A DNA stretch of 64,000 nucleotides, taken from the sequence record OP557969.1. One strand, given 5' to 3'. The stretch's first letter is position 1. Each line of letters opens with the position of its first letter. The stretch comes from Escherichia phage ph0011. A program made the position numbers and the translations under genes. A model generated the notes under the pieces. The model searched no databases, was not told the DNA's origin, and saw nothing but the letters and a program-made list of their open reading frames with translations. Shown piece by piece: positions 3,683 through 58,762 of this stretch.

Positions 3683-3690
3683 GGGACTAT

Positions 3691-12415: not shown

Positions 12416-12488
12416 ACATAAATAATATTGTATAAAAGTGAGGGTGAAATTAAACCCTCATTTATAATGCATATTTCAAGGAGATTGA

Positions 12489-12716: not shown

Positions 12717-12805
12717 GTTAAAAATCGCACTTTTTGAAGCTTTTAAAAAAGGCGATTTTATTCAGTACTAAATAATATCATACTTTATACGAATATAATA
12801 TATCT

Positions 12806-13654: not shown

Positions 13655-13674
13655 ATATCTGAAAGGAGATCATT

Positions 13675-14298: not shown

Positions 14299-14309
14299 CA
14301 TTTTAAAAA

Positions 14310-14317
14310 TATAAATA
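14310..14317 (+). promoter_or_regulatory. T4-type late promoter motif TATAAATA upstream of the scaffold gene
   Basis: Exact TATAAATA 48 nt upstream of the ATG at 14365, followed by a hairpin (ATCTGTA...TACAGAT). Confidence 0.45.
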
Positions 14318-14364
14318 TCTGTATATTGAAGTACAGATATTTCAGTACTTAAAGGAGAGAACGA

Positions 14365-15480
14365 ATGTCTAAATTAGAAAAGCTTCTAAAAGAATCATCT
14401 CTTTCTGATGAGGCAAAACAGCTAATTCAGGAAGCATGGAATGAAGAAAAGAATACACTAGCCGCAGAGATGCGTGAAGAAATGAAAGGTCGTTACCAGC
14501 AGGATTTGGCTGAACTAACTGAAGGTTTGAACACTATGGTTACTCAAGTCATTGCTGAAGAAATGGGTGCTGTATATGAAGAGAAAAAACGTCTTGTTGA
14601 AGATCGTGTAACTCTACGTAAAACACTAAGCAATTTCTCTGCGTTTTCGAACTCTGTATTGGCAGAAGAAGTTAAACAAATGCGTAAAGAACGTAAGCAT
14701 CTTCATGAATGTATGGGTAAATTTGTTAATTTTTCTAACGGTATCCTAGCAGAAGAGCTAAAAGAATTCCACAATGAAAAACGTCAACTAGTTGAAACAC
14801 GTGTAAAACTACTTGCTGAAGGTTCACGTCAAATTGCTGAAGCTCGTAATAACTTCATCAAACGTACATCTGAAAGTGCTGCTAAATATATTGCAGAGAC
14901 AACTCAGAAGAATCTATATGCGTTGAAACAAGATCTAGTGGAAGCGAAACAAAATATGTTTGGTCGTAAAATCTTTGAAGCATTTGCTCAAGAATTTAAT
15001 GTCAAACAATTCAATGAAAATTCATTGCTACGTTCACTAACTGAAACAATTAAATCTAAAGAAGATGAAATTGATCAAGTTAAGCAAGAACTACATGAAA
15101 CTGTTAATGCGGTCAAAGCTGCTAAAACTAAACTACGTATTATGGAAGATGCACAAGCCCGTAATGCGATTATGTCTGAACTAGTAAAACCACTAACAGC
15201 ACAGCAAAAACAAATTATGGAATCCCTTCTAGCAACTTCACCTACTGAAAAGCTTAAAGAAGATTTCAATAAGTACCATAAGTCAGTACTTAACGGTACT
15301 AAAGTAAATGAATCTGCTACCACTCGTCAAGCAGTTCAGTCTTCCGCTAAGAAAACTCTTGCAGAAGGTAAAGTGATCACTGGCAACCGTCAGGCTATTG
15401 TTGAAAGCGAAGAAATGACCGCTGACGATATGGCATTCCTAAAAGAACTTGATGTTCTTTCTGGTATCAATAAAAAATAA
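14365..15480 (+). CDS. Prohead scaffold protein gp22-like
   Basis: 371 aa, highly charged and helical with heptad-like repeats; directly upstream of the major capsid gene. Confidence 0.5.
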   Translation: MSKLEKLLKESSLSDEAKQLIQEAWNEEKNTLAAEMREEMKGRYQQDLAELTEGLNTMVTQVIAEEMGAVYEEKKRLVEDRVTLRKTLSNFSAFSNSVLAEEVKQMRKERKHLHECMGKFVNFSNGILAEELKEFHNEKRQLVETRVKLLAEGSRQIAEARNNFIKRTSESAAKYIAETTQKNLYALKQDLVEAKQNMFGRKIFEAFAQEFNVKQFNENSLLRSLTETIKSKEDEIDQVKQELHETVNAVKAAKTKLRIMEDAQARNAIMSELVKPLTAQQKQIMESLLATSPTEKLKEDFNKYHKSVLNGTKVNESATTRQAVQSSAKKTLAEGKVITGNRQAIVESEEMTADDMAFLKELDVLSGINKK

Positions 15481-15518
15481 ATATTTTAAAGCATTTTAAT
15501 AATCAAATTTTTCAGTTC

Positions 15519-15526
15519 TATAAATA
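15519..15526 (+). promoter_or_regulatory. T4-type late promoter motif TATAAATA upstream of the major capsid gene
   Basis: Exact TATAAATA 46 nt upstream of the ATG at 15572. Confidence 0.45.
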
Positions 15527-15571
15527 ATAACATACTGAAAAACGAATATAACATCTTTAAGGAGATATATA

Positions 15572-16747
15572 ATGTCACAACTACTAAATGAATCCAAATG
15601 GGTAGCAGTAAAAGAGAAACTAGTTGAAGGTCTACAGGGTACTCGTAAGTCTGTAATGGAAACTGTTCTTGATAACCATCGTAAAGTTATGCTAACTGAA
15701 TCTGCAACTTCTGGTGCAACTACTGCTGGTAACATCGCTACTCTAAACAAAGTGATTCTACCAATTATGCGTCGTGTAATGCCAACTGTTATTGCGAACG
15801 AAATTATCGGTGTTCAACCAATGACTGGTCCAGTTGGTCAGATTCACACCCTACGTGTGCAATATGCTGATAATGCACCTGGTGTTATTGCTGGTGAAGA
15901 AATGCTTTCTCCATACAAAATTGCAAAATCCTACTCTGGTGAACTAAATTCTGATAATAGCAACCCACAAGCTGCTCCTACTAGTCAACTAGAAGGTACT
16001 ATGGGTCGTCGCGTAAATATCCGTATCCTACGTGAAACTGTTGAAGCGAAATCACGTCGTCTATCTGCACGTTGGACTGTTGAATCTGCACAAGATGCAC
16101 AATCTCAACATGGTGTTGATGTTGAAGCTGAACTAATGGCAGCAATTGCACAAGAAGTTACTGTAGAAATCGACCAAGAACTACTAAGCCGTCTACGTGC
16201 ACTACCAGGTGCTGCTGCTGTAACTTATGACCAATCTAAAGTTACCGGTGTTGCAACTTTCGTAGGTGATGAACACGCTGCTCTAGCTACCCTAATCAAC
16301 CGTCAAGCTAACGAAGTTGCTCGTCGTACCAAGCGTGGTGCAGCAAACTGGGCCGTTGTTTCCCCAACTGCTCTAACCATTCTACAGTCTGCAACTACTT
16401 CTAGCTTTGCACGTACCACTGAAGGTACTTTTGAAGCACCAACTAACGTTAAGTTTGTAGGTACTCTAAACAGCACCATGCGTATCTTTGTTGATACCTA
16501 TGCAAGTGATTCTGAAGATATCCTAATTGGTTATAAAGGTAATGCTGAAACTGATGCTGGTGTATTCTATTGCCCATACATCCCACTAATGGCATCCGGT
16601 ACTGTTATGGACCCTAACACTGGTGAATTGGTTACAACTTTCCTAACTCGTTATGGTTACGTACAATTGACCGACAGCACTTCCTCTCTTGGTAACGCTG
16701 CTGACTACTATAGCAAAATCGCTATCAAAAACGTTACTTTCATGTAA
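15572..16747 (+). CDS. 23: Major capsid protein gp23-like
   Basis: Conserved blocks IANEIIGVQPMTGPVGQ, VEAKSRRLSARW and IGYKGNAETDAGVFYCPY match the T4 gp23/gp24 family as recalled from memory. Confidence 0.85.
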   Translation: MSQLLNESKWVAVKEKLVEGLQGTRKSVMETVLDNHRKVMLTESATSGATTAGNIATLNKVILPIMRRVMPTVIANEIIGVQPMTGPVGQIHTLRVQYADNAPGVIAGEEMLSPYKIAKSYSGELNSDNSNPQAAPTSQLEGTMGRRVNIRILRETVEAKSRRLSARWTVESAQDAQSQHGVDVEAELMAAIAQEVTVEIDQELLSRLRALPGAAAVTYDQSKVTGVATFVGDEHAALATLINRQANEVARRTKRGAANWAVVSPTALTILQSATTSSFARTTEGTFEAPTNVKFVGTLNSTMRIFVDTYASDSEDILIGYKGNAETDAGVFYCPYIPLMASGTVMDPNTGELVTTFLTRYGYVQLTDSTSSLGNAADYYSKIAIKNVTFM

Positions 16748-16889: not shown

Positions 16890-18488
16890 ATGCTTGGTGA
16901 AATCAAACAGTTTTTGAAGACGAAAAAGTTAAGAGGTGTAAAATCTGCACTTCAAGCAAAACCATTATATGTTGATTACTTAAAAGAAATTTATGGTGAT
17001 ATCGAACTGAATGTTATCATTTACATGGTATTGAATGATATTAAAGAAATTCCAAAAGCAAAATGTGGTAACGATGTAAAGTTTGTTAATTTAATTGAGG
17101 GATTCAGTGACAGATGTAATCTACCGTTTCAGGGAAAAAATAAATGTAAAGTTTGTTCTGTAATGATTTCTGAAAAAAGAAAAAGTACATACAAGAATAA
17201 AACTGGGTATGATAATCCCGGACAGAATCCAGACGTTCGTGACAAGATGTCAAGAACTAATATTAATCGTTACGGAACTACTGTTCCCCAGCAGACCGAT
17301 GTTGTCAAAAAACGTTCAATTGAGACAAATCTTCTTAAGTACGGAGTTGAACATCCCTCAATGTTGGAAGAAAACAAAGAGAAACGCCAAAAAACTGTTT
17401 TTGAAAAGTATGGTGTAGATAATGTACTTAAAACTACACATAAACGCCTTGAAGAACGTTATATGAATTTCAAGAAAAAATATGAATATTCTGGAAAATA
17501 TACATTACTTAGTTCAATTGAAGAGTATGATTCTTCTGTTAATGGTGTTAAAAGTATTCTTTTATGGAAATGTAATACTTGCAACAATACTTTCAATAAA
17601 GTTGCACCGTGTTTAAGATGTCCTAAATGTGAACCATACTCTTCCAGTACTGAAGAAGTTGAATTATATGAATATATTTCATCAATCTATGACGGTGTAA
17701 TTATCCAGAATAGTAGGAATATTATCACAGGTAATGAGATTGATATTTTCATTCCAGAACTGAAACTTGGTATTGAGTTCAATGGTGAGTACTGGCACAG
17801 AGACGAAGTGCGTGGTAATAATTATCATCAGAGCAAATATATTCGTATGAAGGAAAATGGCAACAAACTTATTACTATATATAGTAATGAATGGCGTAAT
17901 AAAACTGACATCGTTAAGCGTAGATTAAAAAGCATTTTAAATACTGATAATAGAGTGTACGCTCGTAAGTGTACTATCGGTTTAGTTCAGAATGATGTAT
18001 GTGATGAGTTTTTGAATACATATCATATACAGGGTAAGTGTAGTTCTTCGATTCGCGTAGGTCTGTATTTGGAAACAGAACTTGTTGCAGTAATGACATT
18101 CGGTAAACCAAGATTTAACAAAGAATATGAATATGAACTACTCCGTTATTGTTCCAAAGATACAGTGGTTGGTGGTGCTTCAAAACTGTTAAAATATTTC
18201 GAAATTACACATGTTCCAAAATCTTTGATATCTTATGCTGATATGAATTGGAGTTCTGGTAATCTATATGAAGCAATTGGATTTCAATTTGTTGAAATGA
18301 CGAAACCTGGATATTTCTATTATGATAAAAAAACAGAAACCACATATTCCAGATACCAATGTCAAAAGCAAAAACTAATATCAAAGTTTGGATTTCCTAA
18401 CACAATGACAGAGAATGAAATGACACGATCACTTGGTTATTACAAAATATATGATTGTGGTAATTTAGTATATAAAAAAGAATACTAA
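16890..18488 (+). CDS. Large free-standing nuclease-like protein, paralog 1 (putative homing endonuclease)
   Basis: N-terminal Cys cluster, repeated (R/K)YGV(E/D) module, central DIFIPELKLGIEFNGEYWH motif resembling Vsr/DUF559 PD-(D/E)xK cores, conserved C-terminal domain; paralog of 51760..53508. Confidence 0.45.
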   Translation: MLGEIKQFLKTKKLRGVKSALQAKPLYVDYLKEIYGDIELNVIIYMVLNDIKEIPKAKCGNDVKFVNLIEGFSDRCNLPFQGKNKCKVCSVMISEKRKSTYKNKTGYDNPGQNPDVRDKMSRTNINRYGTTVPQQTDVVKKRSIETNLLKYGVEHPSMLEENKEKRQKTVFEKYGVDNVLKTTHKRLEERYMNFKKKYEYSGKYTLLSSIEEYDSSVNGVKSILLWKCNTCNNTFNKVAPCLRCPKCEPYSSSTEEVELYEYISSIYDGVIIQNSRNIITGNEIDIFIPELKLGIEFNGEYWHRDEVRGNNYHQSKYIRMKENGNKLITIYSNEWRNKTDIVKRRLKSILNTDNRVYARKCTIGLVQNDVCDEFLNTYHIQGKCSSSIRVGLYLETELVAVMTFGKPRFNKEYEYELLRYCSKDTVVGGASKLLKYFEITHVPKSLISYADMNWSSGNLYEAIGFQFVEMTKPGYFYYDKKTETTYSRYQCQKQKLISKFGFPNTMTENEMTRSLGYYKIYDCGNLVYKKEY

Positions 18489-28959: not shown

Positions 28960-35278
<6,319 letters not shown>

Positions 35279-38125: not shown

Positions 38126-38944
38126 ATGACAAAATTAAATGAATTCTTATCAAATATAGCAGTTCTTGATACTGAAACCACTGGCGTTGAAAGTGATGAT
38201 GATATTATTGAATTTAGTATCTCATATCCATATACTTCACATGAAAACATTGATACTATTGATAACTATACATTGCGATATAAACCACTGAAAGATATTC
38301 CACCAGAAGCATCGGCTGTTCACTTTATCAGTACTGAGGATGTAGCTAATTGTGTTGGGTATAAAGATGATTTAGATAACATAGATGCACTTATGGGATG
38401 CCGTAAGTATTTTGTTGGTCATAATGTACAATTTGACCGTAGAATGATGGTAGATAATGAATATAAATATCGTAACTCAGTTTCACAGTACTTACTCGAT
38501 GAAGATAAATGGATTTGTACTCTTCGTTTGGCTAAGAAAATGTTTGCAGAAGATACCGAATATAAAAACTTAACTCTAAGTTATTTGTGGTATAAGTTTG
38601 GATGCCATCGAGATGTTCACAGACCTATTAATGCTCACGCGGCAAAAGATGATGTATTCATGTGTTATCAGGTTCTAATCAAATTGGTTGAAATTGCCAT
38701 CGAACGTGGTCATATTGATTCCAATGGGGATATTGGTGAACAAATAGTAGCTTTTTGTAACACCCCAATGCGTTATCAATTCATGCCATTTGGTAAACAT
38801 AAAGGTGAGCCAATGAATACAGTACCATTGAATTACATTGAATGGATGATCACTAATAGTGACATTTTAGATGCAAGTAACCCTAACTGTGATAAAGATT
38901 TAGTATATACATTTGAGTACGAATATAATACTCGAACTAATTAA
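38126..38944 (+). CDS. DnaQ-like DEDDh 3'-5' exonuclease (DexA-like)
   Basis: Exo motifs LDTETTG, VGHNVQFD and H-x4-D (AHAAKDD). Confidence 0.6.
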   Translation: MTKLNEFLSNIAVLDTETTGVESDDDIIEFSISYPYTSHENIDTIDNYTLRYKPLKDIPPEASAVHFISTEDVANCVGYKDDLDNIDALMGCRKYFVGHNVQFDRRMMVDNEYKYRNSVSQYLLDEDKWICTLRLAKKMFAEDTEYKNLTLSYLWYKFGCHRDVHRPINAHAAKDDVFMCYQVLIKLVEIAIERGHIDSNGDIGEQIVAFCNTPMRYQFMPFGKHKGEPMNTVPLNYIEWMITNSDILDASNPNCDKDLVYTFEYEYNTRTN

Positions 38945-38959
38945 CAAAGGTAATCATGG

Positions 38960-41539
38960 ATGAAAATTTGTAAGTTAACTTTATTGGATGAGGTGAATTG
39001 TAAATTTGAGGGACTAGATCCCTCAATTCGACAAAAGATGATTCGTGCAACTGAATATGTGCTACCATATGCAAAGTTTACACCAGCAGGTCGTATTGGG
39101 CGTTGGGATGGTAAAGTACAATTCATGAACTTAGGTGGAAGCACATACTTTCATATGCTTGATAAACTTTTACCTATTCTTGACGAAGCTAATATTGATA
39201 TTGAATTAGAAGATCATAGACTAAATTACGGTTTCGAATTTGAACCAATTGATGAAAATATTTTTAGCGATGTTGTTTTTGGTCCTGGACACCACATGGA
39301 AGGTAAAAGTATTATCCTACGTGAACATCAGGTAAATGCAGTAAATTCGTGTTTAGCTAACCCACATGGGTTGGTTCTGGCAGCAACTGGTGCAGGAAAA
39401 GCCCAGCCACTTGATGAACCAGTTCTTACCATTAATGGATGGAAACGAATGGGTGACATAAAAGTTGGCGATATAGTAAAATGTCCTGATGGAACAAATG
39501 CTCCCGTCCTTGGTGTATATCCACAGGGAATTAAACCAACAGTACGAATGACATTCTCGGATGGACGAAGTGTCGAATGTTGTGATGAACATTTATGGAA
39601 TATATATAGTATTGCTGGTGAAAAAAACCCTGAAAAACGATGGAGAAACCTTTCTGTTAAAGAAATCATTGAATTACAAAATAAACAAAAACGTCCAGTA
39701 TATATTAAAACAATCACTGGTGATATTTTTGAAGAAAAAGAATTACCAATACATCCATATATTTTAGGTGTATTACTCGGTGATGGATGTTTAAGAAATG
39801 GTAATATAATGTTATCAAGTTCAGATGAATTTGTTATTGATAAGGTATCTTCATTATTACCTGATGGTTATATTATCAAGAAAAAACAATCATCAAAATA
39901 TGATTATAGTATTGTCATGGATGATACAAAAAAGAAAGAATATTTATGTAAAAATAATAAAGAAAGATATAACGAACTTAGGGTTATTTTGGAAGAACTT
40001 GGAATTTATAATAAGTATTCATATGAAAAGTTTATCCCTGAAATTTACAAAATGTCATCAATTGAACAACGTCTGCAACTCATTCAAGGATTAATTGACA
40101 CGGATGGTTATGTTGATAAAAGATTAAAAAACGGAAAGTCCCGAAATGTGGTGGAATTTTGTAGTACATCAGAAAAATTGGTTGATGATTTGAAAGATAT
40201 AATGAATAGTTTAGGTGGTTACGGTATTAAAAAATCTAAACAAACTTATTATACCTATGCAGGGGTAAAACAAAAAGGTCGCCCAAGTTTTAAAATGAGA
40301 ATTGATTATAATAATCTTAATGCCTTGGCTAGTTTACCTCGCAAAAAAGACTTTTTATATTCAGAAAGAAATCGTGTTGAAAATAAACTAAAAATTGAAA
40401 AAATTGAATATATTGAAGATAAAGAATGTCAATGTATCTATATTGATCATCCAGAACATCTATATATTACCAGAGATTATATCGTAACACACAATACAAT
40501 TATTTGTGCTGCTTTGGCGAAATCGGTACAAAAATATGGACGTTCTGTTATCATTGTCCCCAGCACTGACCTAGTACAACAAACATATGATGATTACATT
40601 ATGTGTGGATTAGATGCTGGTATGTTCTATGGTGCACAGAAAGATTTTGGTCATCAACATACTATTACTACTTGGCAATCATTTAACTCTCTATGGAAGA
40701 AAACCAAAAAAGGTGAAATTGAATTAACAGAACAAGACGTAAATGATTTTATTGATGGGGTAGTTTGTGTTATAGTTGATGAGTGTCAAGGTGCTGGTGG
40801 TGATGCATTAGTTCAAGTACTATCTAAAGTTATGAACAACGTACCATTGCGTTGGGGTCTTACTGGTACAATTCCGAAAGATCCGGTTGTTGCAGCGAAA
40901 ATCAAATGTAATGTTGGTGATGTTATATATAAAATCACTGCAAAGGAATTACAAGATAAAAAGATACTAAGTACATGTAATGTGAATTGCATTAAACTAA
41001 AAAGTAGTATGAAGTTTGCATCATATGCTGAAGAGTTGAAATACTTAGTAACTGACAGAGATAGAATGGCATATGTAGCGTCATTGATATCTGCGTTATC
41101 TGAATCAGGAAACACTTTAGTTTTAGTAGATAGACTTGAAGCAGGTGAGTTGCTATGTGAATTTTTAGGCATTCCCAAATCAGAATTCGTTCGTGGAGAA
41201 ACTAAAAAGAAAGATCGAGAATCATCTTATGGTGAAATTCGTTGGGCTGATAATAAAATACTTATTGCGACATACGGCGTTGCCAGTACTGGTATCAGTA
41301 TTTCAAGGCTATACAATGTAGTATTGATTGAACCTGGAAAAAGTTTCGTAAGAACTATACAATCAATCGGACGTGGATTACGCCGTGCTGAAGACAAAGA
41401 CCATGTTGAAATATATGACATTAGTGGTTCTAATAAGTATAGTGCAAAGCATTTACGTGAGCGTCTCGCTTACTATAAGGAAGCACAATATCCTCATACA
41501 GTAATAGACGTTAAAGATTGGGAAAACACAGCGGGATAA
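38960..41539 (+). CDS. uvsW: UvsW helicase containing an intein
   Basis: Exteins resemble T4 UvsW as recalled from memory (RIGRWDGKV; LAATGAGK | TIICAALAKS...IIVPSTDL; ATYGVASTGISI); 859 aa including a 365-aa insertion. Confidence 0.8.
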   Translation: MKICKLTLLDEVNCKFEGLDPSIRQKMIRATEYVLPYAKFTPAGRIGRWDGKVQFMNLGGSTYFHMLDKLLPILDEANIDIELEDHRLNYGFEFEPIDENIFSDVVFGPGHHMEGKSIILREHQVNAVNSCLANPHGLVLAATGAGKAQPLDEPVLTINGWKRMGDIKVGDIVKCPDGTNAPVLGVYPQGIKPTVRMTFSDGRSVECCDEHLWNIYSIAGEKNPEKRWRNLSVKEIIELQNKQKRPVYIKTITGDIFEEKELPIHPYILGVLLGDGCLRNGNIMLSSSDEFVIDKVSSLLPDGYIIKKKQSSKYDYSIVMDDTKKKEYLCKNNKERYNELRVILEELGIYNKYSYEKFIPEIYKMSSIEQRLQLIQGLIDTDGYVDKRLKNGKSRNVVEFCSTSEKLVDDLKDIMNSLGGYGIKKSKQTYYTYAGVKQKGRPSFKMRIDYNNLNALASLPRKKDFLYSERNRVENKLKIEKIEYIEDKECQCIYIDHPEHLYITRDYIVTHNTIICAALAKSVQKYGRSVIIVPSTDLVQQTYDDYIMCGLDAGMFYGAQKDFGHQHTITTWQSFNSLWKKTKKGEIELTEQDVNDFIDGVVCVIVDECQGAGGDALVQVLSKVMNNVPLRWGLTGTIPKDPVVAAKIKCNVGDVIYKITAKELQDKKILSTCNVNCIKLKSSMKFASYAEELKYLVTDRDRMAYVASLISALSESGNTLVLVDRLEAGELLCEFLGIPKSEFVRGETKKKDRESSYGEIRWADNKILIATYGVASTGISISRLYNVVLIEPGKSFVRTIQSIGRGLRRAEDKDHVEIYDISGSNKYSAKHLRERLAYYKEAQYPHTVIDVKDWENTAG
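39401..40495 (+). mobile_element. Intein (365 aa) with LAGLIDADG homing-endonuclease domain in the UvsW Walker A
   Basis: Begins AQPLDEPVLT directly after GAGK and ends YIVTHN before Thr+1; LAGLIDADG motifs ILGVLLGDG and LIQGLIDTDGY; homologous to the terminase intein. Confidence 0.75.
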
Positions 41540-49926: not shown

Positions 49927-50871
49927 ATGGATATAAACCAAACAGCAACCGAGCTTCAAAAGTTCGCAGATGCACATAATTTAAATGTTGATGTTTCTGT
50001 AATTCTTGATAATATGGATGCAGGTGATTTCATCACCTTAAATTCTGCGATTGATAATTCTGACAATCGTGAAATATTCCAAATTTTACAAAAATACAAA
50101 GCACAGATGAGTGAATGTTATGAATACTTCAGTACTAAAAATGTTAGTAAACATATAAACGAAAGTACTGAACTTTATAGTATTATTGATGCAATGTCAC
50201 TAAAACAATTAGAAGAAATGTATAATAAAAAATATACTTATTCTGATACAACAAAATTAACCACACAGGAATTAAAAGCGATTGTATTTGAGGATTTTCA
50301 AAATCAAACAACACAAATGCAAGCTAAACAAATTGCTAAAATGAATGTTTCTCAAGACCAACAGCAAGTTAATCCACAAACACAAGCTAAAATGAAACAA
50401 GCTGAGCTACAAAGAAATGCTAATAATATAAAGGTTAGTGTTCCTGGTACACAAGACGGTACTGATGCAGTTGAGCCAGTTGTGGGTATTGATCCAGGTC
50501 AAACACCAGAACAATCACTAGTAGTGACAAAGAGTGGTACTAAACCGAATGAATTGAATGTTTTCCCATTAAATGATGTCAATCCTATAGACAATCAAAA
50601 CACGCCAATCCGTGAGGAAAAATCCCCACAAGAAATCAATAGTGAACTAATGGGTAATTCAAGTTTAGAGTCTGATAGTAACCCTGATACACAATCACCA
50701 CTATCACATCACGCCCCTGGTATGGGTGAAATGATTCATGCTATTTCTGATATCGAAAAAGAAGATGATATTTATGGTGATGAAAGTGTAATGGCAAACC
50801 AGTCCCAATCTGAGAATGATGACATGGTGGATCAAATTATTGATTATTGTCATCGTATGCGAGGTCGTTGA
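49927..50871 (+). CDS. Hypothetical protein (314 aa)
   Basis: ORF in track; Gln-rich middle segment. Confidence 0.3.
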   Translation: MDINQTATELQKFADAHNLNVDVSVILDNMDAGDFITLNSAIDNSDNREIFQILQKYKAQMSECYEYFSTKNVSKHINESTELYSIIDAMSLKQLEEMYNKKYTYSDTTKLTTQELKAIVFEDFQNQTTQMQAKQIAKMNVSQDQQQVNPQTQAKMKQAELQRNANNIKVSVPGTQDGTDAVEPVVGIDPGQTPEQSLVVTKSGTKPNELNVFPLNDVNPIDNQNTPIREEKSPQEINSELMGNSSLESDSNPDTQSPLSHHAPGMGEMIHAISDIEKEDDIYGDESVMANQSQSENDDMVDQIIDYCHRMRGR

Positions 50872-51085
50872 TGAGAACAGTACTGAATGTGCATGGTCAC
50901 AATACGATAGTTTCCAATGAAGAATATAAACTGTTACAAAAGATAAAAGCACGCGGTACTGTTCCAGTTGAAAAAGTAAATGAATATTATCAGGAACTAG
51001 CTAATAAAATGGTATCGCGTGGTGTTCTACATAAAATAGAAAATGATGATGGTACTGAATCATACCAAACTGTTAGGAGTAGTAA

Positions 51086-51760
51086 ATGAATTACGAATAT
51101 GATCAACAATCCGTTAATCAGATGGCAGATTTATTAAGTGGTCTTAATGATATTGAAGCTGGTGAAACACATAATGCCGCAGGTGTTCCATATAAAGCAA
51201 GTGGTGATATTGGTGCAATGACTGCAATTTTAACTTCATTAAATGAAGCTGGAATGGATTACGGTACTGATCCAGAGAAGATTCATCCGAACGTTGTGCC
51301 ATACAATGCACCATTCAATGAACACATGAATGGACAACAATCTACCATTCAGCCATATAGTCAACCATCTAAGCCGAAAACTAATTGGAGCTTAGTAGAA
51401 GAAAAAGTTCAAGGAACTAAATCTACCAAAGTGTATAGTATCAAGTGTAATCATAGTTCACAGATTATTATGAATAATATTATGATGTATGAAGCTGCAC
51501 TTACATTAGTTAATCTTTTGAATGAAGGACGAATGTTGACAGATGCAAAACTCCTTGGTATAATTAGTTCTGGATTACAATACACAAATGTAATCAGTGA
51601 GGCATTAAAAGCTGCTCAAAGGCGACAACGTGTTCTTAATGAATCAAAGTATGATGAAGCAAAAGAATTAGATATAATTATTGCAGAAAAGAAAGCAGAA
51701 GCTTATAAATTGAAAGAGCGTGTATTGAACTTTCTTAAAAATGAAGGGTATATTACCTGA
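51086..51760 (+). CDS. Hypothetical protein (224 aa)
   Basis: ORF in track. Confidence 0.3.
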   Translation: MNYEYDQQSVNQMADLLSGLNDIEAGETHNAAGVPYKASGDIGAMTAILTSLNEAGMDYGTDPEKIHPNVVPYNAPFNEHMNGQQSTIQPYSQPSKPKTNWSLVEEKVQGTKSTKVYSIKCNHSSQIIMNNIMMYEAALTLVNLLNEGRMLTDAKLLGIISSGLQYTNVISEALKAAQRRQRVLNESKYDEAKELDIIIAEKKAEAYKLKERVLNFLKNEGYIT

Positions 51761-53508
51761 TGTTAGATGAATTGAAGAAATTCTTAAAAAGCAAAAACAA
51801 AAAAACATGGGTTAAGTTGGTAAACAATAATGAATTATATTTTAAATATGTTCGTGAATTGTTCCCAACTAAACCAATGAATGAAGCATTGTATCTTATC
51901 ATGAATGACATGGTGCGTGCACCATCTGCCCCATGTGGTTCTGAATGTAAATTTATTAATGGTTCATATGATAAGTATTGTTCTAAGCCTACAAAACCAA
52001 ACAAAAATCGTGATAATGGGTTTTGTGTAGTATGTAATGAGCATTGGAAGCAAAACAAACTCAAAAATACTAAACAAAAATGTCTTGATGTTTATGGTGT
52101 CGAACATCATTGGCAAAGAAATGATGTAAAAGATAAAATAAAAAGTACTAATATGAAACGATATGGTGTTGAACACAATTCACACGTCGAACATGTACTT
52201 GAAAAAAGAAAGGAAACTTTCATTGAAAGATATGGTGTTGAATCACCGTTATCATCTGTTGAAATTCGTGATAAGATAAAAGCAACAAACATTGCAAAAT
52301 ATGGTGTTGAAAATTATGGAAGTACATGTGAATGTATCGAAAAACGAAATAAAACAATGCAAGAATTATATGGTTTTAGTAATGCACAACATGTAAAGAA
52401 GTTTTCAAATGAATCAAAGATTACTAAATCTAAAATAAGATATGATAAAATTTTATCTATTATTAACCCTTCATATAAAGAACTGTTTGAATATGATGAC
52501 TTGATAGATTCAACCAATGAAAGTAAACTTCCGTACTATTGTGAAATACACAAAGGACTGTTTTATAGTAATTATAAATATGGTATAGTTTGTGATGTTT
52601 GCAACCCACCTGTATATAGTTCAATACAAAATGAAATAAAAAACTTTGTATCAACATTGACTGAATGTAACATTATCATGAATGATAGAAGTAATGGGTA
52701 TGAGTATGATATATACATCCCTGAACTTCAGATAGCAATAGAAGTCAATGGAATGTATTGGCATAAAAGTGATATGGTTGATAAGTATTACCATAGAACA
52801 AAAACAATAAATTCGATAGAACGTGGGATTAGATTGATACATATCTTTGAAGATGAATGGTACTGTAAACAGGAAATTATTAAAAATAGATTAATGAATG
52901 TTTTTCAGTGTTCTAGAAAGATTTATGCCAGAAAATGTATTGTTAAAAAAATTAACACTAATATTTGTTATGATTTCTTAAACACTAATCATATACAAGG
53001 ATATACTAAATCTGGAATAAACTATGGTTTGTTTTATAATCAAGAATTGATTGCAGTAATGACGTTCGGAAAAAGTCGATATGATAAAAAATTTGAATAT
53101 GAACTAATACGATACTGCTCACGTGGAACTGTTGTTGGTGGTGCTAGTAAATTATTGTCTGCATTTGAGCGTGAATACAAACCATTGTCGTTGATGAGTT
53201 ACGCTGACTTGAATTGGGGGTCAGGACAGTTATACATATCTCTTAACTTTGAAAATTTAGGATACACAGAACCCAAATATTTTTATTATGATCCAAAAAC
53301 AAAACAGCGTTTTTCTAGACATAAATTTAGAAAACATAAATTAATTGAAATGGGCTACGACTCATCTAAAACTGAAGAAGATATATGCTTAGGTGAAATT
53401 GGATTGTATAAAATATACGATTCTGGTAATTGCAAATTTGCTAAATATTATTACAACACAAACATTACAGGAGATATTGAAAAATGTCCAAATCGTACAA
53501 AAAACTAA
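51760..53508 (+). CDS. Large free-standing nuclease-like protein, paralog 2 (putative homing endonuclease)
   Basis: Same architecture as 16890..18488: N-terminal Cys cluster, YGV repeats, YDIYIPELQIAIEVNGMYWH motif, conserved C-terminal YELIRYCS...VVGGASKLL. Confidence 0.45.
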   Translation: MLDELKKFLKSKNKKTWVKLVNNNELYFKYVRELFPTKPMNEALYLIMNDMVRAPSAPCGSECKFINGSYDKYCSKPTKPNKNRDNGFCVVCNEHWKQNKLKNTKQKCLDVYGVEHHWQRNDVKDKIKSTNMKRYGVEHNSHVEHVLEKRKETFIERYGVESPLSSVEIRDKIKATNIAKYGVENYGSTCECIEKRNKTMQELYGFSNAQHVKKFSNESKITKSKIRYDKILSIINPSYKELFEYDDLIDSTNESKLPYYCEIHKGLFYSNYKYGIVCDVCNPPVYSSIQNEIKNFVSTLTECNIIMNDRSNGYEYDIYIPELQIAIEVNGMYWHKSDMVDKYYHRTKTINSIERGIRLIHIFEDEWYCKQEIIKNRLMNVFQCSRKIYARKCIVKKINTNICYDFLNTNHIQGYTKSGINYGLFYNQELIAVMTFGKSRYDKKFEYELIRYCSRGTVVGGASKLLSAFEREYKPLSLMSYADLNWGSGQLYISLNFENLGYTEPKYFYYDPKTKQRFSRHKFRKHKLIEMGYDSSKTEEDICLGEIGLYKIYDSGNCKFAKYYYNTNITGDIEKCPNRTKN

Positions 53509-54119
53509 TGGAAACTGCTTCTCGTGCTGAAGCAATGAAATTTATTAAATTGAATGAATCTAATATTGAAAAGGCAGAAATCGTCCTTTCAGTTAAAGGT
53601 GAAATTGTTGATAAATTACAACGTCAATCAGAGGTTATTAATAACATGGGTGTTGACGTACTAGGCCCACTACTGGATCGTATTAAAGCTGAACAGGGTT
53701 TGGATGCCGCACAAAATTTTAGTGATAATGTTCGTCATCTTCTACAACATGCTGTAGCTACTTTAATGGACGTGAAAGACAAAATCAGTACTGAAACACT
53801 AAAACTAACTGGTGATATTACTGATGGTCCTGATGTTTCTGATATTGGTAGTGAAGATGTTGATATTGACATTGCCAGTGACACCCCAACTTTTGATATG
53901 GATGCTGATGCAGATTTTGAAGATGATATTATTTCTGAGCCTGTTCCAACTGAGCGTGAGATGAAAGAATCGGTTAAGCCACGTAAAGTTGGTGTAAAAA
54001 TGGAAAGTATTCGCGGTACTGTAGGAACTAAATATTTTAGTTCAAAAGACGAAATGAAAACATGGCTATCTGAGAATGAAAAGAAAGTTAAACGAGTTCT
54101 AGGGTATGTTAAAAAATAA
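53484..54119 (+). CDS. Acidic hypothetical protein
   Basis: ORF in track; Asp/Glu-rich central region. Confidence 0.3.
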   Translation: MSKSYKKLMETASRAEAMKFIKLNESNIEKAEIVLSVKGEIVDKLQRQSEVINNMGVDVLGPLLDRIKAEQGLDAAQNFSDNVRHLLQHAVATLMDVKDKISTETLKLTGDITDGPDVSDIGSEDVDIDIASDTPTFDMDADADFEDDIISEPVPTEREMKESVKPRKVGVKMESIRGTVGTKYFSSKDEMKTWLSENEKKVKRVLGYVKK

Positions 54120-54135
54120 TAAAGGGTGAATCTAC

Positions 54136-54471
54136 ATGAGGTTTAGTGATCTTACTGAAGAGGCTCCTGGAAAAGATATACGCAATATGATCACGACTAT
54201 TGCGTTGTCTTTAATGTCCACTGGTAGAGAAGATGTGAATGTTCAATCTTTAATTTCTGAAATTAAAAAGAGAACCAACATCGATGTTCCATACAATGTG
54301 ATGATGGATATTTTGAATTCCCTACCTTTTGTACAGGATGCTAATTCAGATATTGTAACTTTTGTTGGTAATTCAGCAGAAGGTTCAGGTGAATCTGAAC
54401 AAAATTCGGAAGAGCAAGTTGAAGATTGGGCAACAAAAGCTGCTGTGTCAGCAAATAAACAAAAAAACTGA
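54136..54471 (+). CDS. Hypothetical protein (111 aa)
   Basis: ORF in track. Confidence 0.3.
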   Translation: MRFSDLTEEAPGKDIRNMITTIALSLMSTGREDVNVQSLISEIKKRTNIDVPYNVMMDILNSLPFVQDANSDIVTFVGNSAEGSGESEQNSEEQVEDWATKAAVSANKQKN

Positions 54472-54510
54472 AACAAATAAAAATATAATGCTATAATTAG
54501 GAGTACACGG

Positions 54511-55230
54511 ATGTACACACCACCAATTGTTAGCAGATATACATACGTTGGTTATAATAGAATTGAAGGCGGCCCAGAAGGTCGCCTTTATTCAACTCCA
54601 ACAGGTAATCTGCCATCAGTAACAACAATTCTTAGTGCGACCTCAAATGATGAGGGTTTAAAGAAGTGGAGAGAATTCGTTGGTGAAGAAAAAGCTAATG
54701 AAATCACATTAGAAGCATGTACAATTGGTACTTTTATGCATGAGAACTTAGAATTTAGATTAGAAGGCAAACCAGACCATGAAGGTGGTATGCCAGTTAG
54801 AGTTCTAGCACGAAGGATGGCTGATAAGATTCAGGAAGAAGCATGGCCTCGAATCAATGAAGTGTGGGGACAGGAAGTCCCCTTGTATTATGAAGGTTTG
54901 TGGGCAGGTACAACAGACTTAGTAGGTGTTCATGATGGAATTCCAACCATTATGGATTATAAAAATTCTCGTAAGGTTAAGAAGTGGTCACAAATTGAAA
55001 ATTATCGTATGCAAATCGCTGCGTATGCATTAGCTCACAATCAAATGTTTGGTACTAATATAGAACGTGGTGTTATTTTCATCTGTGTAAGAAAAGACCC
55101 TAATAATCTACAATATCAAGAGTTTATTATTGAAGGACAAGACTTCAAAGATGCTGTTAATATGTGGATTGAACGTGTAGAACAATACTATATTTTACGT
55201 GGAGAAATTGAATCAAATGGAGCAGCATAA
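54511..55230 (+). CDS. PD-(D/E)xK nuclease of the RecB/Cas4/lambda-exonuclease type
   Basis: Motifs D...IMDYK (D-x-K core) and QIAAYALA (QxxxY); no Cys cluster. Confidence 0.5.
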   Translation: MYTPPIVSRYTYVGYNRIEGGPEGRLYSTPTGNLPSVTTILSATSNDEGLKKWREFVGEEKANEITLEACTIGTFMHENLEFRLEGKPDHEGGMPVRVLARRMADKIQEEAWPRINEVWGQEVPLYYEGLWAGTTDLVGVHDGIPTIMDYKNSRKVKKWSQIENYRMQIAAYALAHNQMFGTNIERGVIFICVRKDPNNLQYQEFIIEGQDFKDAVNMWIERVEQYYILRGEIESNGAA

Positions 55231-55771
55231 AAAAATGAAACAAGATCTATATACAATTCGTGCTTTAGAAAGTAAAGGGTATGATTTAGAAGAAGTTATC
55301 AAACTAAGTGATGAAGAAATTGACAATCTTGATTTATCACATAAACTGATTCTAAATATTAAAGATTATAAACAGCGTGGTGCTAAACCTGTAGAAGTAA
55401 TTAAAGAACAAATTGCACAAGATATTAGTATCGATGAGGTATCACGTAATGTGCCACCAGAAGTAATCCAAGAGTATGCTGTCAATAGTGAAGAACAGGT
55501 AAAAGTTTCTAAAGAAGTCGAAAGTATGGCAGAAGAACTAGTTCCTGAAGTCAAAGAAGATGAAATTGTTATTGAGCGAGTGGTTTCTTCTAAAGAAGAT
55601 TTGGATATTATCAAAGAAGCACTACAAACTAAAGAGCTTAAAAGTGTATCTAGTTATGTAAAACATTTAAAATCTATCGTCCCAGAACAGATTCTATCTT
55701 CTGTCGATAGTTCAGTAGTATCTCAGTTGATCAATGAGCGTATTACTGAAGTTAAAGAAAAAGCTAAATAA
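55199..55771 (+). CDS. Acidic hypothetical protein
   Basis: ORF in track; Glu-rich. Confidence 0.3.
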   Translation: MEKLNQMEQHKKMKQDLYTIRALESKGYDLEEVIKLSDEEIDNLDLSHKLILNIKDYKQRGAKPVEVIKEQIAQDISIDEVSRNVPPEVIQEYAVNSEEQVKVSKEVESMAEELVPEVKEDEIVIERVVSSKEDLDIIKEALQTKELKSVSSYVKHLKSIVPEQILSSVDSSVVSQLINERITEVKEKAK

Positions 55772-55798
55772 TCCTATGATACTATAGGAGATAGTTTT

Positions 55799-56380
55799 AT
55801 GGCACAACAACAAATTGCATTACAACAAGTACGAACTGGTAAACAACGAGATTTACCAGATGCATTAGAAAAAGGTCAGATAGGATTTAGTACTGATGTG
55901 GGTCGTGTATTCATTGGTCTACCATCATCATCTGACCCAGCTAGTCTAGTTGCAGGAAGAACATGGACAACTGATCCAAATTCAGGAAAAGAAAACGTAG
56001 AAATAATTACAGAATTTTCACCGTGGAGAACGGTTTCCAAAATAGTCAATAGGCCATTTAAAGTGGATCTCCCACAAAATCAAGATAAAATTGAAGTTAT
56101 TCTTGATAGTGAGAGTCGAGTCTTTATTGATTATATTGCATATGATGATACTGAAGAGGTTTTAGAATCTGGAACAGTCCAAATTGTGGCGATTGGCTCA
56201 AAGGCGATGTTTGCACAGTCTAATAACACAAATCGAAATGATGCGATTATATCTATTACATTTGAAGATCCTGCATATGATCCAACAACTGGAAATATGC
56301 AATTCAATATAGTTAACTCGGATTATTTAAATGCAGGATATCATATAGAATTTGTATATCGTGGGTGGGACAAACCTTAA
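55799..56380 (+). CDS. Hypothetical protein (193 aa)
   Basis: ORF in track, followed by a terminator. Confidence 0.3.
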   Translation: MAQQQIALQQVRTGKQRDLPDALEKGQIGFSTDVGRVFIGLPSSSDPASLVAGRTWTTDPNSGKENVEIITEFSPWRTVSKIVNRPFKVDLPQNQDKIEVILDSESRVFIDYIAYDDTEEVLESGTVQIVAIGSKAMFAQSNNTNRNDAIISITFEDPAYDPTTGNMQFNIVNSDYLNAGYHIEFVYRGWDKP

Positions 56381-56400
56381 AAGGCGTCCCGCCTTTTTCT
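56378..56400 (+). terminator. Rho-independent terminator
   Basis: AAGGCG-TCC-CGCCTT followed by a T-tract. Confidence 0.55.
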
Positions 56401-56443
56401 TCCACTAAAAAAGTAATTTACATCAAAAAAACAAGGATGACAT

Positions 56444-58762
56444 ATGATTAACGTAACCAAGCGTAATGGAATGAAAGAACCGTTATCATTGGATAAGATC
56501 CATCAGATTTTATTTTTCGCTGCTGAAGGTCTAAGTGGTATTTCAGTTTCTGAAATTGAACTTCGTGCACAACTTCAGTTTTATGAAGGTATTGAAACCA
56601 GTACTATTCATGATATTCTGATTAAAGCAGCCGCAGAACTTATTTCAGAAGATACACCAAATTACCAATATGTTGCTGGTAGATTATTAAACTATAGTAT
56701 TCGTAAGCAAGTATATGGGCAGTATGACCCGATTAAATATGCTGCTCATCTTCAAGAAATGGTTGATATCAAAATATATGATCCTGAAATTCTTGAAAAA
56801 TATACTCTTCAAGAAATAGAAGAGCTTGGGCGTTATATCAAACATAAACGTGACGATAAATTTACTTATGTTGCAATGCGACAATGGGAAGGAAAATACC
56901 TTTACAAAAACCGCGTTACTAAGAAAATTTATGAAACTCCACAAATGGCATATATGACTATTGCCGCAATCATTTTTATGGAGTATGATCGTTCCGTTCG
57001 TATGTCATATGTTAAAAAGTTTTATGATGCAGTAAGTAACTTTGACATTAGTCTTCCTACACCTATTATGGCTGGTCTACGTACAAACACACGTCAGTTT
57101 AGCTCTTGTGTAGTTCTAAATGTTGGTGACAGCTTGGATAGTATTGGTTCATCTAACCACGCCATTCTACGTTATATTTCACGTAAAGCTGGTCTTGGTA
57201 TTAATATGGGCCGCATTCGTGCCCTAGACTCCGAGATTCGTTCAGGTGATGCAGTACATACTGGATTGATTCCGTTCATTGCAGCTACTGCTAAAACTGT
57301 TAAAAGCTGTTCACAAGGTGGTGTTCGTGGTGGAGCAGCAACTGTTCACTTCCCATTGTGGCATTTGGAATTTGATAACTTGGTAGTTCTTAAAAACAAC
57401 AAAGGAACTGAGTTTAACCGTGTACGTCAACTGGACTATTGTTTCCAAGTAAACAAAACTTTGTATCAACGTTTGGTTGATGGAAAGAATATCACGTTCT
57501 TTAGTCCTAATGAAGTTCCTGGGTTATATGATGCATTTTGCTCTGATCAAAAAGAATTTGAAAAGCTATATAAAAAATACGAATCTGACCAAAGCATCCG
57601 TAAAAAATCCGTACCTGCTGTTGAAGTATTCAGTACTCTAATGACTGAGCGTGCAGAAACTGGTCGCATTTATATTCAAAATATTGACCATGCAAACACA
57701 CACTCAACCTTTATTGAATCAATTGCACCAATTGAACAATCCAACTTGTGCCAAGAAATTGCACTACCATCTGTACCATTTGATGATATTAATACAGGTG
57801 AAGGTTTGATTAGTCTATGTACTTTGAGTGCAATCAACTGGGGTAACTTTGATCGCCCAGAAGATATGGAAACTGCATGTGATCTTTCTGTACGTGCACT
57901 TGATTCTCTATTGGACTATCAAGACTATCCAGTGGTTCATGCGGATCGTGCAACAAAAATGTACCGCCCGTTGGGTGTTGGTATCATTAACTTTGCATAC
58001 TTCCTAGCCAAACGTGGGTTACGTTATAATGAGGAAGCATTAGAAACAGTTAACGAGTGGGCTGAAGCATGGTCTTATTATCTAATTAAATCTTCTGTAC
58101 AGCTTGCCAAAGAAAAAGGTAAGTGTGAAGGTTTTGACACATTAAAATATGCTAAAGGTATCCTTCCAATTGATACTTATAAATCTGATATGGATGAATT
58201 AGTAACTAAAGAGCTAAAACAAGATTGGAAATCTTTGCGTGAAGATATCAAACAATATGGTATTCGTAATGCTACAACTATGGCTCTAATGCCAGCAGAA
58301 ACAAGTGCACAAATCAGTAACAGTACTAACGGTATTGAAAAACCTCGTTCTCTTGTAACAAAGAAACTATCAAAAGATGGTATTCTGAAACAAGTAGTTC
58401 CTGAAATCAATAAGTTGAAAAACAAATATGATTTACTATGGGAACAAAAAGATAACATTGGCTATCTACAAATTTGTGGTGTTCTACAAAAATACATTGA
58501 TCAAAGTATCAGCGTTAATACCAGTTACAATCCAGTACATTTCCCTGATGGAAAGTTACCAATGTCAACTCTCCTAACTGAGCTTATGTATGCATATAAA
58601 GTAGGGCTTAAGAACCTGTACTATCATAATACCAATGACGGTTCGGATGAAGTAGATGTTGAAAAAGTACTCAAAGAAGCATCTAAACCAGAATCAGGGC
58701 AGTTTGTGTTACCTACATTACCTGACTTGGATGAAGGTGATTGTGATAGTTGTAAAATCTAA
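56444..58762 (+). CDS. nrdA: Ribonucleotide reductase class Ia alpha subunit NrdA
   Basis: Extensive identity to E. coli/T4 NrdA as recalled from memory (VTKRNG...LDKIH ATP cone; PTPIMAGLRT; CSQGGVRGGAAT; C-terminal Cys pair). Confidence 0.95.
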   Translation: MINVTKRNGMKEPLSLDKIHQILFFAAEGLSGISVSEIELRAQLQFYEGIETSTIHDILIKAAAELISEDTPNYQYVAGRLLNYSIRKQVYGQYDPIKYAAHLQEMVDIKIYDPEILEKYTLQEIEELGRYIKHKRDDKFTYVAMRQWEGKYLYKNRVTKKIYETPQMAYMTIAAIIFMEYDRSVRMSYVKKFYDAVSNFDISLPTPIMAGLRTNTRQFSSCVVLNVGDSLDSIGSSNHAILRYISRKAGLGINMGRIRALDSEIRSGDAVHTGLIPFIAATAKTVKSCSQGGVRGGAATVHFPLWHLEFDNLVVLKNNKGTEFNRVRQLDYCFQVNKTLYQRLVDGKNITFFSPNEVPGLYDAFCSDQKEFEKLYKKYESDQSIRKKSVPAVEVFSTLMTERAETGRIYIQNIDHANTHSTFIESIAPIEQSNLCQEIALPSVPFDDINTGEGLISLCTLSAINWGNFDRPEDMETACDLSVRALDSLLDYQDYPVVHADRATKMYRPLGVGIINFAYFLAKRGLRYNEEALETVNEWAEAWSYYLIKSSVQLAKEKGKCEGFDTLKYAKGILPIDTYKSDMDELVTKELKQDWKSLREDIKQYGIRNATTMALMPAETSAQISNSTNGIEKPRSLVTKKLSKDGILKQVVPEINKLKNKYDLLWEQKDNIGYLQICGVLQKYIDQSISVNTSYNPVHFPDGKLPMSTLLTELMYAYKVGLKNLYYHNTNDGSDEVDVEKVLKEASKPESGQFVLPTLPDLDEGDCDSCKI

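Follow-up and report, generated by a model that had tools for sequence, protein, structure and literature searches.

The gene at 54511..55230 (plus strand) in the window, which is a stretch of 64,000 nucleotides from Escherichia phage ph0011 (OP557969.1), encodes a protein of 239 aa that is, judged by its motifs and its predicted fold, a RecB/RecE-type PD-(D/E)xK nuclease without an iron-sulfur (Fe-S) cluster, belonging to the MGME1/Ddk1 branch. It probably works as a stand-alone metal-dependent exonuclease on intermediates of phage replication and recombination, the D/E-rich proteins encoded on its flanks not being part of a nuclease-specific module. The finding has little weight as a discovery: the gene is not new, exonuclease annotation existing in phages 121Q, PBECO4, RaK2 and CBB, and the resemblance of MGME1 to Caudovirales exonucleases from phages of cyanobacteria and proteobacteria has been in print since 2013 (PMC3597694). 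It does correct the record, in that the nuclease is of the MGME1 type rather than the Cas4 of some database entries, that the "three-gene module" of a sequence-only reading is an artefact of conserved synteny, and that the acidic protein encoded upstream is in its CBB orthologue a virion component. Biochemistry of the phage nuclease would be of modest value for understanding how labour is split among FEN, Mre11/Rad50 and MGME1-type nucleases in large phages, and also for the proposed phage origin of mitochondrial MGME1.

The nuclease matches PHROG 298 'exonuclease' (E 1e-64) and, with a score above the gathering threshold, Pfam PDDEXK_1 (E 1.4e-5). Its sequence shows D136...I-M-D149-Y-K151 followed by Q168-I-A-A-Y172-A-L, and the five motifs, catalytic and supporting, are all kept (H77, E122, D136, D149-x-K151 and Q168-xxx-Y172), each of the named residues being invariant among 29 homologues down to 44% identity. 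There are just two cysteines, neither of which lies in an invariant or near-invariant column of these homologues. In a phmmer alignment to human MGME1, which spans nuclease residues 34–226, H77, E122, D136, D149 and K151 pair with H180, E223, D238, D251 and K253, and Q168 and Y172 correspond to Q271 and Y275 of MGME1 motif IV. These MGME1 residues have been defined as motifs I–V (PMC3597694) and borne out by mutagenesis (PMC6237815). The sequence-only reading had proposed a RecB/Cas4/lambda-exo-type nuclease with D..IMDYK and QIAAYAL motifs and without Fe-S cysteines, to be given up if the motifs failed formal alignment; they do align, and the assignment is borne out by Pfam, PHROGs and the non-conserved cysteines and can be sharpened to MGME1/Ddk1-like.

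The predicted fold superposes best on human MGME1 (PDB 5ZYU, 5ZYT, 8XA9) and has two long helices that match the single-strand-selective arch of that enzyme. The catalytic domains are of equal size, whereas sequence identity is just 21–22%. The presequence and the disordered N-terminus of MGME1 are missing from the phage protein, which has a short N-terminal beta-sheet (residues 16–36) instead. The pin residue W152 of MGME1 pairs in the phmmer alignment with the invariant W53, whereas F173 aligns with the variable C70. Among the other RecB-type nucleases, RecE and Dna2 are nearer in fold than Cas4. The Fe-S cysteines of Cas4 (four, which ligate the cluster), Dna2 and AddB are missing, and, in contrast to the AddA and RecB nuclease domains, no helicase is fused to the nuclease. 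RecE and lambda Exo systems pair with an annealase (RecT/Red-beta), whereas Pfam, PHROG and NCBIfam searches of the flanking ORFs revealed no annealase of the Red-beta, RecT or Erf type.

Within PHROG 298, 121Q gp29, RaK2 ORF137 ('recB') and CBB gp300 are direct orthologues of the nuclease, and S-PM2 p196 (T4-like cyanophage gene cluster 325) and the Ackermannviridae exonuclease (e.g., Marshall_72) are homologues. Identity is 98% to 121Q/PBECO4, 78–82% to CBB/RaK2, 43% to Ettore and 30–36% to the Ackermannviridae and cyanophage homologues, with matches over the full length. There is no material difference in the nuclease between the PHROG 298 phages and the window; the gene neighbours vary by phage family. 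The exonuclease is not mentioned in the main text of the omics paper on phage PA5oct.

By sequence, the phage is a Rak2/121Q-like jumbo phage: the window shares its gene order with Asteriusvirus UE-S1 (DNA identity 91%) and with 121Q/PBECO4 (88–89%). It encodes a DnaB-like helicase, a primase, a second helicase, SSB, UvsX, UvsY and DNA polymerase, further a FEN-type 5'-3' exonuclease, a DnaQ-like exonuclease, Mre11/Rad50-like proteins and NrdA/NrdB, and also a Peptidase_S77 protease. UvsX/UvsY are encoded 17 kb upstream of the nuclease region, and NrdA/NrdB within 1.2 kb downstream, followed by a MazG-like pyrophosphohydrolase. As the sequence-only reading had it, a homing-endonuclease-like gene lies just upstream: it is of the Hef type (51760..53508, plus strand; phrog_3339, E 1e-136; Pfam DUF7487) and is a mobile insertion, with boundaries at about 51754–53481, in the spacer between the orthologues of 121Q gp26 and gp27. 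It is missing from 121Q, phAPEC6 and CBB, and the same site is occupied in UE-S1 and RaK2.

Downstream of this insertion, all on the plus strand, are encoded a virion-associated protein of 211 aa (53484..54119; 121Q gp27, CBB_298, RaK2 ORF135; phrog_14154 'virion structural protein', E 4e-72), a small acidic protein of 111 aa (54136..54471; 121Q gp28, CBB_299, phAPEC6 gp182c; phrog_15050, E 5e-64), the nuclease, a D/E-rich protein of 178 aa (55235..55771; 121Q gp30; phrog_15452, of unknown function, E 4e-78) and a virion-associated protein of 193 aa (55799..56380; 121Q gp31, phAPEC6 gp179c; phrog_15647, E 4e-107). The three ORFs on which the earlier reading was built are thus present. They are not a trio, however, because the 111-aa ORF, which the earlier reading overlooked, separates the nuclease from the acidic ORF upstream. 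The nuclease and flanking genes are co-directional and tightly spaced. A scan of the intergenic gaps of the locus found no terminator-like site, the single terminator-like hairpin (54866–54882) being inside the nuclease ORF. The promoter scan gave no excess (49 sites versus 55.6 expected from shuffled sequence), and the RNA fold at the junction of the nuclease and the 178-aa ORF is unremarkable (z +0.99).

That two Glu/Asp-rich ORFs flank the nuclease is correct in composition: D+E content is 19.4% in the 211-aa ORF and 21.6% in the downstream acidic ORF, whereas the ORFs of the window have a median of 13.7%, with the 90th percentile at 18.5%. It is not distinctive, since 31% of the ORFs in the window have a pI below 5, every neighbour of the nuclease is acidic, and both proteins also contain about 15% K+R, which leaves a net charge of just −9 and −13. 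In the 211-aa protein the acidity is focused in one linker (residues 111–160, with 19 D/E and one K/R); an AlphaFold2 model (pLDDT 68) predicts a helical hairpin in residues 3–113, disorder in 114–167 and a small C-terminal beta-beta-alpha-beta domain in 169–210. Mass spectrometry of CBB virions has identified the orthologue CBB_298 by 10 peptides that cover 35.8% of it (PMC5259590); the phAPEC6 orthologue is missing from the virion proteome list of that phage. Via its CBB orthologue the 211-aa protein is thus virion-associated, and it is a neighbour rather than a demonstrated partner of the nuclease. Orthologues of the 111-aa protein have likewise been detected in virions (CBB_299 with two peptides, phAPEC6 gp182c with one), as has that of the 193-aa protein (phAPEC6 gp179c, two peptides). 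The 211-aa and 111-aa proteins are counted here among the small particle-associated proteins of the phage lineage. The nuclease and the 178-aa protein are missing from both the CBB and the phAPEC6 lists.

The 211-aa protein is homologous to the C-terminal half of the Ettore virion protein 0034 (hhalign 96%). The idea that the ORF at 51086–51760 together with the 211-aa ORF equals this 395-aa Ettore protein was dropped, as the N-terminal half did not match. The orthologue in fEgEco12 is labelled 'prohead core scaffold protein', for which the text of the fEgEco12 paper gives no basis; we do not adopt the label, since hhalign yielded no significant match (probabilities of 1.9% for T4 gp22, 0.1% for T4 gp68, 0.3% for the ORF at the gp22 position of the window and 0.2% for an acidic ORF in the window's own head module). 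Searching the PDB with profiles of the two acidic proteins returned nothing usable, and in BFVD the model of the 211-aa protein, which is of moderate confidence, matched in fold only uncharacterized phage proteins.

For the downstream acidic ORF, the maximal reading frame begins at GTG 55199, which had been taken as its start. This is probably wrong: orthologues start at an ATG that corresponds to position 55217, for 184 aa, or to 55235, for 178 aa, the methionine at 55235 being invariant across orthologues and the start used in RaK2 and UE-S1. The phrog_15452 alignment begins at residue 11. Depending on the start chosen, the ORF begins 4 nt past the nuclease stop or overlaps the nuclease gene. 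The gene is rapidly evolving and restricted to the Rak2-like clade, its product having 44–46% identity to the CBB/RaK2 orthologues (versus 78–82% for the nuclease), and all 71 phage records with the family being Rak2-like, with 33 representatives among 1.84 billion proteins. For this ORF (178 or, in its maximal form, 190 aa) the earlier verdict that function is not assignable from sequence was fair; for the nuclease it was too pessimistic.

The distribution of the genes bears on whether they belong together. The nuclease family is found in 981 phage records and the 211-aa and 178-aa families in 73 and 71, so that the nuclease is about 13 times more widespread than its acidic neighbours. Beyond the Rak2-like lineage, in the Ackermannviridae and the cyanophages, it occurs without both of them: in the former its homologue lies between UvsY and DNA helicase, beside clamp and clamp-loader genes, and in the latter among td, nrdC and phoH, adjoining phoH/gp33. 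Of 78 related metagenomic loci, only two have the 178-aa ORF adjoining the nuclease, and this ORF is missing beside the nuclease in PA5oct-like phages including Ettore, where a longer homologue of the 193-aa protein is directly 3' of the nuclease (BLASTP to ETTORE_0038, E 1e-5). In 63 of these 78 viral loci, or 13 of 17 clusters when the nucleases are grouped at 70% identity, a 211-aa-like gene is present 2–4 genes upstream; NrdA follows 2–3 genes downstream in 42 of the loci. The adjacency of the nuclease and the acidic ORFs reflects conserved synteny of a helicase-to-NrdAB block in Rak2/PA5oct-like jumbo phages. Given the 63 loci, a functional link between the 211-aa-like gene and the nuclease may nevertheless exist.

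By analogy with MGME1, a free single-stranded DNA end would be threaded under the arch and cut by two-metal catalysis, and from such threading it would follow that the enzyme trims single-stranded tails or flaps and not intact duplex or circular DNA. From the gene context, its substrates could be the tails and flaps that phage helicases and the Mre11/Rad50-like nuclease generate in recombination-dependent replication, and an added task might be to degrade unwound host DNA and so feed the adjacent NrdAB pathway. It should be noted that substrate and direction are extrapolated here from a human enzyme of 21–22% identity. Counted against the proposed role are the FEN, the DnaQ-like exonuclease and the Mre11/Rad50-like proteins that the phage already encodes, and also the pin residue F173 of MGME1, which is not kept (C70).

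Nucleotide salvage as the main function, in which helicase-unwound host DNA or surplus linear DNA is converted to mono- or short oligonucleotides for the adjacent ribonucleotide reductase and dNTP pathway, is compatible with the role preferred here and by itself rather unlikely. It would parallel the action of MGME1 with Twinkle and POLG on linear mtDNA, in whose degradation MGME1 is described as participating (PMC6584726), and it draws on the nearness of NrdA/NrdB and the MazG-like gene, on the recurrence of NrdA in the related loci and on the td, nrdC and phoH neighbourhood in cyanophages. However, the Ackermannviridae neighbours (UvsY, helicase, clamp loader) do not include nucleotide-metabolism genes, and no endonuclease for host DNA was found beside the nuclease. 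Much less can be said for a complex in which the two acidic proteins join the nuclease to assist in recombination or to regulate it (e.g., as DNA-mimic inhibitors); we regard this as very improbable. The close, co-directional genes with terminator-free gaps, the 178-aa ORF abutting or overlapping the nuclease gene and the frequent 211-aa-like gene upstream would all fit such a complex, but a fourth ORF stands between, the 211-aa orthologue is found in virions whose protein lists contain neither the nuclease nor the 178-aa protein, the 178-aa family does not occur around the nuclease in PA5oct-like phages, Ackermannviridae or cyanophages, the searches matched neither an SSAP or annealase nor any other known partner family, and MGME1 acts as a monomer (PMC6237815). 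From the earlier proposal of a recombination/repair exonuclease with partner proteins, the role is thus plausible from context and the partners are unsupported.

The other earlier proposal, an anti-defence module in which a Cas4-like nuclease disturbs host CRISPR adaptation or other defences and an acidic neighbour serves as DNA mimic, is hardly credible. It could appeal to the 'Cas4' label on some database records of 100%-cluster members, to weak PADLOC and NCBIfam Cas4 matches across the catalytic core and to the fast evolution of the 178-aa protein. The Cas4 label itself does not stand: the score against TIGR00372 is 27.6 bits (cut-off 65) with only residues 122–204 aligned, the four-cysteine cluster is missing, and naming after MGME1, to which the fold is nearer, is more precise. 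Moreover, PADLOC and NCBIfam scans of five proteins left the Cas4 similarity of the nuclease below threshold and the matches of the others at chance level; no defence or anti-defence family is matched beyond superfamily-level similarity to Cas4. Annotation of the neighbours with Pfam, PHROGs and PADLOC turned up neither cas nor other defence genes, and the strong conservation of the nuclease resembles that of a core replication gene.

There is also the idea that the small particle-associated proteins encoded around the nuclease (49927–51089, 53484–54119, 54136–54471 and 55799–56380) form an island, that the 211-aa protein is a protease-processed internal head, 'inner body' or ejected protein, and that its linkage to the nuclease is functional, for example in the handling of genome ends at ejection; we consider this doubtful. 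The inner-body components of Rak2-like jumbo phages are not known (PMC7247149). In T4-type internal head proteins, an N-terminal targeting propeptide that ends in (L/I)-x-E is cleaved by a gp21-type protease, and the Peptidase_S77 protease of the window would be a candidate for such processing. The N-terminus of the 211-aa protein, MSKSYKKLME/T, resembles the capsid-targeting sequence of T4, which is suggestive but statistically weak: [LIM]xE at residues 8–10 occurs in 2 of 67 ORFs of the window, with about 1.2 expected by chance, and the other of the two is the ORF at the gp22 position.

The nuclease encoded at 54511–55230 (+; 239 aa) belongs to the MGME1/Ddk1-like PD-(D/E)xK enzymes. Its ORF has a good Shine-Dalgarno sequence and holds the D...IMDYK and QIAAYAL strings to which the sequence-only reading had drawn attention. 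The protein is recognized by Pfam PDDEXK_1 with E 1.4e-5, a match that exceeds the gathering score, and by PHROG 298 "exonuclease" with E 1e-64. It shares 98% identity with a cluster of proteins that carry the exonuclease annotation in phages 121Q and PBECO4, and has an orthologue in phage RaK2 that is named "recB". The only solved structures retrieved by sequence are those of human MGME1, with an alignment spanning residues 34–226. The catalytic residues hold up under formal alignment: H77, E122, D136, D149, K151 and Q168/Y172 pair with H180, E223, D238, D251, K253 and Q271/Y275 of MGME1, which is the same set as motifs V, I, II, III and IV defined for Ddk1/MGME1 and RecE (PMC3597694). MGME1 activity was shown by mutagenesis to need H180, E223, D238 and D251 (PMC6237815). 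In 29 homologues, with identities down to 44%, the motif residues of the nuclease are invariant. The AlphaFold2 model built from the alignment of these homologues has a pLDDT of 94.9, and a Foldseek search with it returned the MGME1 entries all on top (E 6e-11 to 2e-9, TM up to 0.83).

Of the two cysteines of the nuclease neither is conserved, so that the protein lacks an Fe-S cluster. Because of this, and because the score against the Cas4 equivalog model is only 27.6 bits (cut-off 65), the "Cas4" labels in some records are over-annotations. It should be noted that the gene, its family name and even the kinship of MGME1 with phage proteins were known before from literature and databases. The sequence-only reading had correctly recognized a known nuclease and added to it an unsupported module hypothesis.

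MGME1 acts as a monomer and forms a rigid clamp on ssDNA, with a helical arch that lets through single strands only; starting at free ends and proceeding in either direction, it digests ssDNA, and it also trims 5' flaps (PMC6237815; PMC11040146). Conservation of the active site, of W53 (equivalent to the pin residue W152) and of the arch helices makes it our best guess that the phage nuclease would likewise degrade ssDNA from free ends, the arch selecting single strands. A second pin residue of MGME1, F173, is not conserved in the phage enzyme. The 64 kb encode at least five nucleases, this enzyme included, since four further nuclease genes, Mre11/SbcD-like, Rad50/SbcC-like, for a FEN-type 5'-3' exonuclease (PF02739) and for a DnaQ/RNase_T-type exonuclease, are present at 2633–5838, 29017–30003 and 38126–38944. 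Also encoded are a DNA polymerase, SSB, UvsX, UvsY, two helicases and a primase, and NrdA, NrdB and a MazG-like enzyme follow just downstream of the nuclease. Among Ackermannviridae, the genes flanking the homologue are those of UvsY and a DNA helicase, with clamp and clamp-loader genes adjoining, and in T4-like cyanophages it adjoins phoH/gp33, near td/nrdC. On the basis of these neighbourhoods we favour a role in which the nuclease would process ssDNA tails or flaps in recombination-dependent replication. The main alternative, that it breaks down unwound host DNA and so serves nucleotide salvage, is compatible with tail or flap processing.

The region 51000–56500 is 91% identical over its full length to Escherichia phage UE-S1, and 88–89% identical over 69% to 121Q, PBECO4, phAPEC6 and other Asteriusvirus genomes; the third without match is a homing-endonuclease gene. 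The gene order is that of 121Q genes 24–33, CBB gp295–303 and RaK2 ORF133–140. Identity and common gene order thus identify the DNA as that of a Rak2/121Q-type jumbo myovirus. The homing-endonuclease-like gene seen upstream (51760–53508) was confirmed by Pfam and PHROG matches. It is of the Hef type and resides in a 1.73-kb insertion (51754–53481) that takes the place of the 38-nt spacer separating the orthologues of 121Q gp26 and gp27; its 3' end runs into the beginning of the gene that follows. The site is likewise filled in UE-S1 and the distant RaK2, but empty in 121Q, PBECO4, phAPEC6 and CBB. A perfect sigma-70 consensus with extended -10 (TTGACA, 17 nt, TG-TATAAT) is found at 51536–51564 (+) within ORF 51086–51760, about 200 nt before the homing-endonuclease gene begins; every base is conserved in 121Q, where the site precedes gp27 by about as much.

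All three ORFs of the proposed "trio" of a nuclease bracketed by two acidic proteins exist. The bracketing itself does not, because an overlooked 111-aa ORF (54136–54471; 121Q gp28) separates the first acidic ORF (53484–54119, 211 aa) from the nuclease. The second acidic ORF is open from a GTG at 55199 to 55771 (178 aa when counted from 55235). This GTG is probably not the start in use, since orthologues begin at an ATG equivalent to 55217 or 55235, the Met at 55235 being invariant. Both ORFs are indeed D/E-rich (19.4% and 21.6%; window median 13.7%, 90th percentile 18.5%), and both have K+R at about 15% as well. Their pI of about 4.9 does not stand out: 31% of the window ORFs have a pI below 5, and all neighbours are acidic. 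In the 211-aa protein the acidity is concentrated in one linker, residues 111–160, with 19 D/E and 1 K/R.

That the acidic proteins are partners of the nuclease is argued against by their phylogenetic distribution. A tblastn search places the nuclease in 981 phage records, from Rak2-like and PA5oct-like phages, Ackermannviridae, cyanophages and phages of Rhizobium, Vibrio and Pelagibacter. For the 211-aa protein there are 73 such records and for the 178-aa protein 71, essentially all of them from Rak2-like phages. Run against 1.84 billion proteins, a profile of the 178-aa family retrieves just 33 representatives, and the 178-aa gene is the least conserved of the block (44–46% identity to CBB/RaK2 versus 78–82% for the nuclease). 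In the PA5oct-like Pseudomonas phage Ettore, the nuclease gene is followed by a counterpart homologous to the 193-aa ORF (55799–56380), and no 178-aa homologue is found. We also compared 78 related metagenomic viral loci (nuclease 43–81% identical), which fall into 17 clusters when the nucleases are grouped at 70% identity. They provide the one observation that speaks for a link: in 63 of them, representing 13 of the 17 clusters, the nuclease is preceded at a distance of 2–4 genes by a gene like that for the 211-aa protein. However, NrdA is 2–3 genes downstream in 42 of these loci, and in 10 the nuclease is followed by a 193-aa-like gene; the block as a whole is syntenic in this viral lineage. 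The neighbours directly beside the nuclease in these loci are not D/E-rich (median D+E 12.9% at -1, 10.2% at +1).

The 211-aa orthologue CBB_298 was found in purified virions (10 peptides, 35.8% coverage), as was the CBB orthologue of the 111-aa ORF (2 peptides) (PMC5259590). Orthologues of the 111-aa and 193-aa ORFs were detected in phAPEC6 virions; the nuclease and the 178-aa protein are absent from the virion protein lists of both phages. The AlphaFold2 model of the 211-aa protein (pLDDT 68) consists of a long helical hairpin (3–113), the acidic disordered linker and a small beta-beta-alpha-beta domain. The conserved part of the protein shares homology with the C-terminal half of a 395-aa Ettore virion protein (hhalign 96%). 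In PA5oct-like phages (Ettore locus L006, 2097–3281) and possibly in Atu_ph07-like phages (BFVD match A0A2L0UZ88, Agrobacterium phage Atu_ph07, 771 aa), larger virion proteins end in this conserved helical domain and linker; that the domain also ends larger virion proteins is why the PHROG 14154 profile has 771 positions. In the UE-S1 record (L002, 5488–6122 corresponding to about 53484–54119) an 8.3-kb left terminal repeat ends inside the 211-aa orthologue, which is annotated as two CDS, probably a frameshift or an assembly artefact at the repeat boundary.

A T4-type head module at 10676–16747 encodes a Portal_T4 portal, a 282-aa ORF (31% D+E, pI 4.05), a Peptidase_S77 prohead protease, a 371-aa ORF in the position of gp22 (scaffold) and a Gp23-type major capsid protein. 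In T4, the sequence that targets proteins to the capsid, MKTYQEFIAE, has the format [LIM]-x-E at residues 8–10. This format occurs in only 2 of 67 ORFs (about 1.2 expected by chance), namely the gp22-position ORF (MSKLEKLLKE) and the 211-aa ORF (MSKSYKKLME). With hhalign no homology of the 211-aa protein to T4 gp22/gp68 or the window's head-core ORFs was detectable, and the N-terminal resemblance may be taken as a lead only. An inner body is present in phAPEC6 (PMC7247149). After the head module, directly behind the major capsid gene, comes a second homing endonuclease of the same family (16890–18488; phrog_3339, E 5e-136).

The large terminase (794 aa, 31470–33854) and a DNA helicase (859 aa, 38960–41539) match identical unrelated PHROGs (terminase, DnaC-like loader, primase), which suggests that they share an inserted element, e.g., an intein or a common ATPase insert.
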